Source: a virus (lineage: Monodnaviria; Loebvirae; Hofneiviricota; Faserviricetes; Tubulavirales; Inoviridae). Taken from it: a stretch of DNA of 7,878 bases. The stretch is taken from the IMG/VR virus record IMGVR_UViG_2654587726_000001; one strand, written 5' to 3'. The translations under genes were made by a program, and so were the position numbers. Positions 3,616 to 5,247 of the stretch are shown piece after piece. Numbering within the stretch: the first letter of the stretch is position 1; each line of letters opens with the position of its first letter. A model generated the notes under the pieces. That model was not told where the DNA came from. It saw only the letters and a program-made list of their open reading frames with translations, and did no database searches.

Positions 3616-5247
3616 ATGAGTTTTTTGAAAAATATTTCTGTGTCGCTATTGTACGTTTTGTTAACAAATCACGCCTGTGCTGAAACAGCGACACTGACTA
3701 CCACAACATTTTCTTCTGAATTGTCCGGTATTATTAATCGCAAATTATCTGCAATGGGGGCCAGCGCCTCATCTATTTCGGCAACGTTATCAGGATATTC
3801 ACGTGCGGCAGCGTCTTTTGCATCAAATTATGCTGCATCTGCCGGGATTTCTGCTTCAGCAATGTCGTGGAGTACTCTGGCTTACGGTCTTGGTGTAACT
3901 ACAGTCAGTCTTGGAATTTATGCCGCAGGAAAACCTTTTGCTGAGGAGGTGGCAAAATTGGTTTTAGATAAAAACGGCTATAACGCGTTTTATTACACTC
4001 CAGCCATGAGTGCGGGTGTCAAGGCCTGGCATGGCGGGTTTGATAATTGCTACGTTACCAGTACTTCGCCGTTTTCTGCTGCTGCGCGGGTTATTCAGTG
4101 CTTACCTCCTGAAGATAAAGCCTCGCTTCAGTCGTCTTATTATACTCCTCCGAAGAGTATCGTTGATAATGAGTGGTACAGTTTCTACTACGCTTATTAT
4201 TTTCGAGGTTCCTGGTCCCAGAGTTCGTTTGTATTCTGGTCAGTAACGTTAAGTGAGGATTCTGTTTTTTGTGATAACGGTCAGGTTCTGTTTTATTCTG
4301 ATGGTAATTCTACTTGCGAGGCAGCAACCACTGAAAATCCATTCTCATCGTCTCTCCACGTGCCATCTTTCTCTGGAAATAATCTGGCATCTCAGGATAT
4401 TGCAGATATTCTTAACGGGCTGACTGAACAATTAGATGGCCTCTCTGAATATCGCGGGATATCTTCGTTTTTATTGAAATATTCCTCTGCTGACGTAGAC
4501 AATTATCGTTCTACGGTAGATCTCCGCATCGGTGATTCTGCAAGTTTTACAGAATCTGGTGTTATTGCTATTCCTCCGACACCAGGTGGTGATACCAGCA
4601 ATTCTGGAGGTAAATATACCCCTCCTGTTATTGACCCCGGTTTTAAGCCCGTTGGAGGTACGGGCAGCGGTACGGGTACAGGCAGTGGTACGGGTACAGG
4701 CAGTGGTACGGGTACAGGCAGTGGTACGGGTACAGGCAGTGGTACGGGTACAGGCAGCGGTACGGGTACAGGCAGCGGTACGGGTACAGGCAGCGGTACG
4801 GGTACAGGCAGCGGTACGGGTACAGGCACTGGAACGGGTACGGGCACTGGAACGGGTACAGGCACTGGAACGGGTAGCGGTACAGGAGCTGGAGTCGGAA
4901 CAGGTTCTGGCAGTACCACTGTAACAGGTAATGCTACGGTAAATGTTAACGTGACTGTGTCAAATGACTTTGGCACTGCACCTTCAGTGGATACGCCTGA
5001 TATTTCATCTCCTGAGCCTTCATCATTCATTTCTCCATTGTGGAATATGTGGCCTTCTGCGCGTGATTTTTCACTGACAATTCCACGGGGGCAGTGTCCT
5101 GTCTTTACATTCAATATCTGGAATAAAGATTATCAACTGGATACTTTTTGTGTGCTGCTTGATACCGATGAAGTCAGGGCCACTTTCAGGGTGATTATGA
5201 CGCTGATTGGCTCCATGCTTTCATTCTTTATTGTTCTTCGGTCCTGA
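3616..5247 (+). CDS. pIII-like minor coat / adsorption protein with glycine-rich repeat linker and C-terminal membrane anchor
   Basis: 543 aa; signal peptide [22 protein letters not shown]; long (GSGTGT)n linker; C-terminal hydrophobic anchor [22 protein letters not shown]. Follows the major coat gene. GGTGA Shine-Dalgarno upstream. Confidence 0.8.
4657..4878 (+). repeat. Tandem 18-bp repeat (about 12 copies) encoding Gly-Ser-Gly-Thr-Gly-Thr units inside the pIII-like gene
   Basis: Unit GGCAGYGGTACGGGTACA repeated head to tail from about 4663, in blocks of sub-variants (GGCAGT, GGCAGC, then GGCACTGGAACG), decaying by about 4880-4910. Confidence 0.9.

Follow-up and report, generated by a model that had tools for sequence, protein, structure and literature searches.

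A hypervariable in-frame minisatellite as the probable length-tolerant tether of a pIII-like protein in an Escherichia coli inovirus prophage

The repeat-bearing gene and its product

The DNA analysed here, called the window, is the whole 7,878-nucleotide stretch of the IMG/VR record IMGVR_UViG_2654587726_000001 (Inoviridae), and it is an inovirus prophage beside dif and hipA in Escherichia coli. Its open reading frame (ORF) of 543 amino acids (aa), a pIII-like minor coat or adsorption protein gene, carries an 18-bp tandem repeat that was detected by Tandem Repeats Finder (TRF) with a score of 349 and 0 indels, and that is read as an unbroken run of 43 Gly-X dipeptides (86 aa; residues 348-433; composition G43 T29 S12 A1 V1). 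The peptide is composed of (GTGSGT)9, then (GT)9, and then a degenerate end of 14 residues. An earlier note on this DNA, made from its letters alone, had described about 12 near-identical 18-bp units encoding (GSGTGT)n in a pIII linker at 4657-4910; the TRF count agrees with this description, and the tract was found to end within 4 bases of the coordinates given there.

The array is organised in blocks of sub-variants, also as described earlier, in which a single first unit is followed by blocks with the Ser codon AGT, with the Ser codon AGC, and with Gly-Thr only, and the differences between units are almost all synonymous. Two tracts of perfect period 18 were identified in it, one of 89 bp at 4669-4757 that includes block 1 and one of 88 bp at 4741-4828 that includes block 2. 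The base composition of the array is 44% G, and it is free of stop codons in five of the six frames; it is therefore overlain by a long antisense ORF and a long out-of-frame ORF, both of the kind that had been expected from the repeat, and both are probably generated by the repeat and not genes. The coordinates of all features are collected in Table 1.

Table 1. Features of the repeat array, of the pIII-like gene and of the other genes in the window.
Feature	Position	Strand	Basis or remark
Core 18-bp tandem array, 12.2 copies, 96% matches	4657-4876	+	TRF
Whole Gly-X tract, variable linker, 43 dipeptides	4657-4914	+	reading in the pIII-like frame
First unit, GGTACG-GGCAGC-GGTACG, n=1	4657-4674	+	
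Block 1, 4 identical units GGTACAGGCAGTGGTACG	4675-4746	+	GGCAGT, Ser codon AGT
Block 2, 4 identical units GGTACAGGCAGCGGTACG	4747-4818	+	GGCAGC, Ser codon AGC
Block 3, 3 units GGTAC(A/G)GGCACTGGAACG	4819-4872	+	GGCACT-GGAACG, Gly-Thr only
Degenerate 3' end of the tract, 14 aa	4873-4914	+	
Antisense ORF, 203 aa, PVPVPL repeats	4503-5114	-	wholly within the pIII-like gene; probably not a gene
Out-of-frame ORF, 130 aa	4532-4924	+	probably not a gene
Predicted signal peptide, 22 aa, cut before ETA	3616-3681	+	read from sequence
Conserved C-terminal domain	4915-5244	+	two invariant Cys, beta-hairpin, hydrophobic helix ending IVLRS
Rep_trans replication protein	1306-2532		window ORF
Small PHROG-matched protein of unknown function	2542-2877		at the position of the single-stranded DNA-binding protein
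Major coat (pVIII-like) gene	3058-3306	+	Pfam Phage_Coat_B, E 0.0068; PHROG
pIII-like minor coat / adsorption protein gene, 543 aa	3616-5247	+	ORF and gene order
pVI-like gene (DUF2523)	5265-5552	+	
pI / Zot assembly ATPase gene	5564-6622	+	
pIV secretin gene	6619-7878	+	

The 543-aa ORF is annotated in RefSeq as a 'hypothetical protein'. It lies between the major-coat-like gene and the genes for pVI, Zot/pI and the secretin pIV, which is the position of pIII, and its homologues P0003 and P0004 (from another enterobacterial prophage and a Salmonella prophage) are likewise placed directly 5' of pVI, Zot and secretin. The N-terminal end has the features of a signal peptide, that is, a basic N end, a hydrophobic core and A-x-A at the cut, and a helix was predicted by AlphaFold at aa 3-17. 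By its C-terminal 111 residues the protein belongs to a family of 215 clusters (50% identity), whose members are mostly 400-600 aa in length and always have this domain at their very C-terminus. Cys 494 and Cys 512 are invariant and bracket a predicted beta-hairpin (strands E497-501 and E504-508) just before the terminal helix (H518-542). In f1, the C domain of pIII was described by cryo-electron microscopy to comprise a disulfide-bracketed beta-hairpin followed by a membrane helix (PMC10175506), and the order of the C-terminal elements in the 543-aa ORF agrees with this description. By its synteny and architecture, the product is best regarded as a putative pIII equivalent, and not as a demonstrated g3p of the Ff type (f1/fd/M13).

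The receptor- and TolA-binding domains N1 and N2 (Phage_Coat_A) were not found in the protein by Pfam or fold matching, and the PHROG matches are all of 'unknown function'. The Pfam g3p N-domain Phage_Coat_A is, however, present in one of 60 proteins sharing the C domain (E 6e-6). The N domains differ between inoviruses, so the missing N1 and N2 lower the case for an Ff-type g3p and leave that for a pIII equivalent as it was. The N-terminal region was modelled by AlphaFold as confident helices, unlike the beta-rich N1/N2 of Ff g3p, with no fold match in BFVD, the only library searched with the full-length model. It contains a hydrophobic Gly/Ala-rich helix at aa 85-105 (window 3868-3930), and a similar glycine-zipper-like segment is also present in the Burkholderia relative P0054. 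A search for full-length homologues returned TonB, tail proteins and others, which were rejected as low-complexity matches, and the true relatives were P0001-P0004 and P0054 only.

The AlphaFold model of the 543-aa protein, built on 60 family sequences, gives aa 304-436 a predicted local distance difference test (pLDDT) score of less than 50 and no secondary structure, and the Gly-X tract lies inside this segment. It is flanked by confident helices at aa 259-300 before it and by the hairpin and helix at aa 468-542 after it. Together with the position and topology of the gene, this is in line with the earlier assignment of the repeat to a pIII linker, an assignment made by synteny and architecture.

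At the same place, other members of the family have low-complexity segments made of GT, GS, poly-T or PT/DP, and some have none. A Gly-rich tract of at least 12 aa was found in 19 of 125 other full-length representatives, the longest being 56 aa, which is exceeded by the tract of the window (86 aa) and by those of its close relatives (62-110 aa). Tracts of the GT type recur in the distant members P0054, P0159, P0163 and P0205. Furthermore, a relative whose pIII is 37% identical and which is also associated with hipA/dif (L025) has its own repeat of 42 bp x 3.7 copies with 97% matches at the equivalent linker place (L025 7137-7294). The varied low-complexity segments and this independent repeat suggest that the linker position is a spacer in the architecture of the protein whose sequence is hardly constrained, and repeats have expanded there more than once. 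In the L025 prophage, the replication protein is also of another kind (G2P_X_C), and the secretin gene is followed by one of the TraX family.

Length polymorphism and pace of change among strains

The window segment 4300-5247 was compared with 5426 complete E. coli genomes, of which 27 matched and 25 matched end to end, the matched spans in the latter differing by -72 to +54 bp from the window. Most of the carrier strains are from humans, several of them from stool. For 24 loci that were fetched, comprising 34 prophage copies, the array was cut between two fixed anchors (window 4620-4649 and 4910-4939). Its span between these anchors ranges from 188 to 332 bp, with 11 lengths, 24 distinct arrays and 21 distinct peptides in the 24 genomes. 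All arrays are in frame, each length equals that of the window plus or minus a multiple of 6 bp, and the encoded tracts range from 31 to 55 Gly-X dipeptides, equal to 62-110 aa. In IMG/VR, the upstream anchor was found on seven contigs, which gave six complete arrays and four further alleles. No allele with fewer than 31 dipeptides occurs among the 34 complete-genome copies and the six IMG/VR arrays. The prediction of the earlier note that linker length varies between isolates is thus borne out, and identical copy number in all relatives, the finding that would have spoken against it, was not observed. No prior description of natural variation in pIII linker length, or of this prophage, was found in the open-access literature.

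The internal structure of the alleles is ordered. There is essentially no variation in the first hexamers and in the last eight, the polarity of the AGT, AGC and ACT blocks is kept, and the degenerate tail at 4873-4914 is the same in all 34 copies except for one allele that lacks one hexamer (L017). The variation lies in the number of hexamers of each type, which is 1-5 for the AGT type, 3-7 for the AGC type (GGCAGC, counted with the first unit at 4657-4674), and 1-11 for the ACT type. Two partial megablast matches (H66 and H67) were considered as swaps of the N domain at the repeat, and this was excluded, with N-terminal DNA about 98.6% identical and all of the extra length in the array.

The flanks were aligned over 4.58 kb, from the major coat gene to the secretin with the array removed, in 25 complete copies. 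Among between-genome pairs with 0-3 flank substitutions, the arrays differ in nine of 11, and among more distant pairs they differ in 288 of 288. For instance, L002 and L010 have no flank substitution and arrays one unit apart, and L008 and L014 have one flank substitution and arrays of 188 and 302 bp. Judged by this comparison, the array appears to change faster than point substitutions accumulate in its flanks. Four loci (L002, L010, L011 and L012) share a common insertion site and identical neighbouring host proteins, yet have three different arrays. Even within one chromosome differences were found: the two tandem prophage copies of RIVM_C037166 have arrays of 296 and 242 bp (54 bp apart), and those of S21EC are equal in length with two bases that differ inside the array. 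In the other nine two-copy genomes, the arrays of the two copies are identical. Identical arrays can also be shared by isolates of one lineage that were obtained independently in different countries (L002 and L011; L008 and L013).

Between the closest relatives, one unit is gained or lost within one homogeneous block (L001 to L004, L002 to L010), and in other cases the loss of a unit from one block is accompanied by a gain in the block that follows (L002 to L012, L009 to L015). Such single-unit changes inside homogeneous blocks are the expected signature of replication slippage in perfect tracts, and they agree with the stepwise expansion that had been suggested from the block structure. A mechanism driven by hairpins is unsupported, since the array folded as single-stranded DNA has no unusual structure (z = -1.36).

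Explanations for a variable tract

Taken together, the array is very probably an in-frame coding minisatellite that serves a temperate E. coli inovirus as a hypermutable, length-tolerant disordered tether in its pIII-equivalent tip protein. Such a tether would join an N-terminal part of about 325 aa, presumed to bind the receptor, to the C-terminal domain of about 110 aa, which would anchor the protein in the membrane and in the virion tip. The perfect 88-89-bp tracts of period 18 may mis-align during replication or recombine unequally, with sister replicative forms or tandem prophage copies as possible partners, and so would gain or lose whole 18-bp units, occasionally pieces of 6 or 12 bp, and sometimes larger multi-unit segments. 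The units are multiples of three without a stop codon; therefore, every product is full-length with a shorter or longer tether, and since a tether of this kind is almost without sequence constraint, many lengths (62-110 aa) would persist. This range is evidently tolerated in nature. From the wide range and from the differences within a lineage and within a chromosome, which favour a hypermutable and largely length-tolerant spacer, we infer both the tether role and the near-neutrality of its length within the observed range. Changes in the array never shift the frame and therefore do not act as on/off switching in the sense of a contingency locus.

Both kinds of element are already known, the Gly-rich linker of pIII type in terms of function and the ordinary in-frame coding variable-number tandem repeat (VNTR) in terms of mutation. 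The pIII of f1 has glycine-rich flexible linkers between its domains, and in Ff pIII/g3p the anchoring C-terminal domain is directly preceded by a flexible Gly-rich segment, whose coding sequence consists of short repeated units and which is disordered or not visible in structures (PMC10175506). The order downstream of the linker, with a Cys-bracketed beta-hairpin and then a membrane helix, both predicted here, appears to be alike as well. The differences are that the Ff linker is of (E)GGGS type whereas Gly-Thr/Gly-Ser is found here, that the L2 linker of f1 has 39 aa (back-calculated from 14.8 nm; PMC10175506) as compared with one tract of 86 aa here and 62-110 aa in relatives, and that the N1/N2 fold is undetected in the N-terminal part and the similarity of the C domain is not significant. 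In addition, extensive natural copy-number polymorphism was not found for Ff in the open-access literature. With the value of 0.38 nm per residue, which is our back-calculation from the 14.8 nm of f1 L2 (PMC10175506), the maximum reach of the tether is about 33 nm in the window and about 24-42 nm across alleles, exceeding that of f1.

In terms of mutation, the closest likeness is to coding repeats in other organisms. ClfA of Staphylococcus aureus has a Ser-Asp repeat that is a coding VNTR in the stalk region of a surface protein; it is similarly an in-frame dipeptide repeat acting as a spacer that projects a binding domain, and its copy number varies between isolates with the protein left intact, whereas ClfA is a cell-wall protein with other dipeptides and here the repeat is in a phage tip protein. 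The period gene of Drosophila has a Thr-Gly repeat with natural length polymorphism, which shares the dipeptide, the degenerate hexamers and the sub-variant cassettes; the protein and organism are unrelated, and the likeness concerns the type of repeat and its mutational behaviour only. New in the present case are a GT/GS tract two to three times the length of the f1 linker, its location in an unnamed pIII family of enterobacterial inoviruses associated with dif or IS110, and a documented series of alleles, with almost every genome carrying a different one.

The same polymorphism could also have been shaped by selection on length. In such a case, the array would be a contingency-type locus in which the tether length is under diversifying selection and sets the reach of the receptor-binding part, for example through a capsule or O-antigen layer, or over the periplasm from an outer-membrane receptor to the inner membrane, with different host lineages favouring different lengths. 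A steady output of tip proteins with tethers of about 24-42 nm would then let one prophage lineage bridge envelopes that differ in O-antigen, capsule or periplasm width, which would hold or widen its host range and make the repeat a filamentous-phage counterpart of the tail-fibre diversification systems of tailed phages. The presence of an own allele in almost every genome, the floor of 31 dipeptides, and a tract longer than any in the other 125 representatives are in agreement with this possibility, as is the dependence of f1 infectivity on the distance from N1-N2 to the C domain (PMC10175506). Different lengths were found, however, among strains of a single lineage that share their insertion site and have 0-1 substitutions in the flanks (L002, L010, L011 and L012), and 54 bp separate the arrays of two copies in one chromosome; both are better fitted by the drift of a hypermutable neutral tract, and we consider tuning of reach unlikely, whether by diversifying selection or by adjustment to differing envelopes.

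The differences in copy number might instead have arisen if a repeat of 260 bp had been mis-assembled or mis-polished. The array cannot be crossed by short-read assemblies; in a large protein collection, the 40 members read from each of the two E. coli clusters for this gene are almost wholly 'partial', several of these 'partial' proteins end 3-9 residues into the tract, and one IMG/VR contig stops exactly at the array. Against such an origin, however, 24 of 24 arrays are in frame with intact and identical ends, and their ordered internal variant maps differ in a manner that random long-read errors would not give. Moreover, same-lineage isolates of different countries share arrays (L002 with L011; L008 with L013), tandem copies agree in nine of the 11 two-copy genomes, and the genomes stem from many laboratories and platforms, which together make an artefact highly improbable. 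An equally improbable explanation is that the tract has a specific function of its own, for example through a regular fibrous conformation, as a site of modification, or as a colicin-like Gly-rich translocation segment that interacts with Tol. The strict Gly-X periodicity through 43 dipeptides and every allele, the GT-type tracts in the four distant members, and a weak low-complexity match to the N-terminal region of colicin A (E 0.78) point in this direction, but other members carry poly-T, PT/DP or no low-complexity segment at that place, AlphaFold predicts no structure for the tract, the matches in the PDB are compositional only, and an almost two-fold variation in length is unlike a specific binding element.

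Several observations weigh against the interpretation of the array as a length-tolerant tether in a pIII equivalent. No family was assigned to the 543-aa ORF by Pfam or NCBIfam, a sequence search of the PDB with the protein and two C-domain profiles gave compositional or chance matches only, and nothing significant was returned by Foldseek for the C-domain model against the PDB and the full model against BFVD. An hhalign comparison with the M13 C domain gave P values of only 0.04 and 0.013. The virion-tip location and the role in adsorption are putative. As for the mode of change, slippage or unequal recombination is likely, judged from the allele patterns alone; slippage by single units alone would not suffice for the duplicated AGC-ACT super-block (order F-C-E-C-E) of L005.1, L009, L014, L015, L019 and L023, for which a larger unequal exchange is needed, with tandem prophages or multiple replicative forms as obvious partners. 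Repeat counts from long reads can carry errors, and polishing may homogenise tandem copies. Finally, the floor of 31 dipeptides suggests a lower limit, so the length is probably not fully neutral.

A hypermutable tether would amount to a natural experiment on the length tolerated by a filamentous-phage tip protein (about 62-110 residues, with none shorter seen), and this range is relevant to the published view that infection is influenced by how far apart the N and C domains are. With changes on a time-scale of single substitutions, the array could serve as a fine-scale marker for typing the prophage in carrier E. coli lineages. Because contigs break at the array, many short-read assemblies contain only a truncated or 'partial' tip-protein gene, and consequently both the prophage and its tip protein are under-annotated. 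With the gene annotated merely as a 'hypothetical protein', the family of 215 clusters defined by the C-terminal domain could be given a name.

The prophage, its integration site and its neighbours

The genes around the pIII-like gene follow an inoviral order (Table 1). The match of the major-coat-like protein to Pfam Phage_Coat_B is weak and below the curated cutoff, and its match to a PHROG of virion structural proteins has an E value of 2.9e-14. No nucleotide match to the window and no match to the pIII-like protein were found in the GenBank phage collection, in which the nearest Zot, from a human-gut metagenomic inovirus, is 39.5% identical.

A prophage in E. coli E700025 matches window positions 202-7878 exactly or almost exactly and is present there in two tandem copies flanked by hipA and a dif site with one mismatch. 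This dif was located at L001 16839-16866, 3' of the second prophage copy and beside hipA, and a dif-like sequence (GGTGCACATAATGTGACACGCGTTATGTTGAAAA) lies at the left end of the prophage at window 203-236. Tandem duplication of the prophage is frequent at this site: among the 24 fetched genomes, 11 gave two copies, all of them at dif. No recombinase was found among the window ORFs by the ORF list and a Pfam scan. With dif adjacency, a dif-like prophage end and no integrase of its own, the prophage has the features of an Xer/dif-exploiting integrative inovirus (IMEX). Similarly, CUS-1 of E. coli K1, YpfPhi of Yersinia pestis and CTXphi are small inoviruses beside chromosomal dif, often in two tandem copies (PMC4266046), and they share the dif-associated form without an own integrase and the Zot and secretin genes. 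The phage collection in which no match was found probably lacks CUS-1 and YpfPhi as separate records, and their identity to the window was not directly compared.

About the first 195 bases of the window (minus strand) are foreign to the E700025 context and read as the N-terminus of a transposase-like or helix-turn-helix (HTH) protein (MTALAAEFFTLDEVNRLKIIQDVIDRRL...); the source strain of the window therefore has a different left junction. At the equivalent place in the RIVM and AF strains, an ISNCY-family transposase pseudogene without its N-terminus is present.

A comparison of L002, L007, L010-L012, L016, L019-L022 and L024 with window 200-2900 revealed that one structural and assembly module, at least about 99% identical from 2876 through the secretin gene, is joined to three different replication/integration modules. 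The first consists of Rep_trans and the dif-like site, at hipA/dif. The second has an IS110-family transposase and a 2-kb 'replication endonuclease', and was found at hcxB/ybiB, yahK/yahJ or leuO/ilvI. The third, in L019 at dif, has an HTH protein, a 'phage/plasmid replication domain' protein and a single-stranded DNA-binding protein. Judged from these junctions, the prophage group appears to be a clear modular mosaic with a switched integration mechanism.

Further observations concern individual genes. Downstream of the prophage secretin in the Salmonella relative, at a distance of about 1.3 kb, is an ORF of 161 aa that encodes a TolA domain (PF06519; L026 11255-11740); it may be a decoy or fragment of TolA that the phage carries, or just a gene of the host. 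The Zot/pI gene contains a second small in-frame repeat at window 6356-6375 (TCTTCGCCG x2), which is single-copy in both prophage copies of L006 and in L021, the Zot gene being 1050 nt as against 1059 nt. In strain 48956, the secretin gene of one prophage copy is broken by an IS21-family element (L006 2164-4130), and in strain 100117 the secretin gene is split into two ORFs (L012 11320-12579); some copies are therefore probably defective in particle export.

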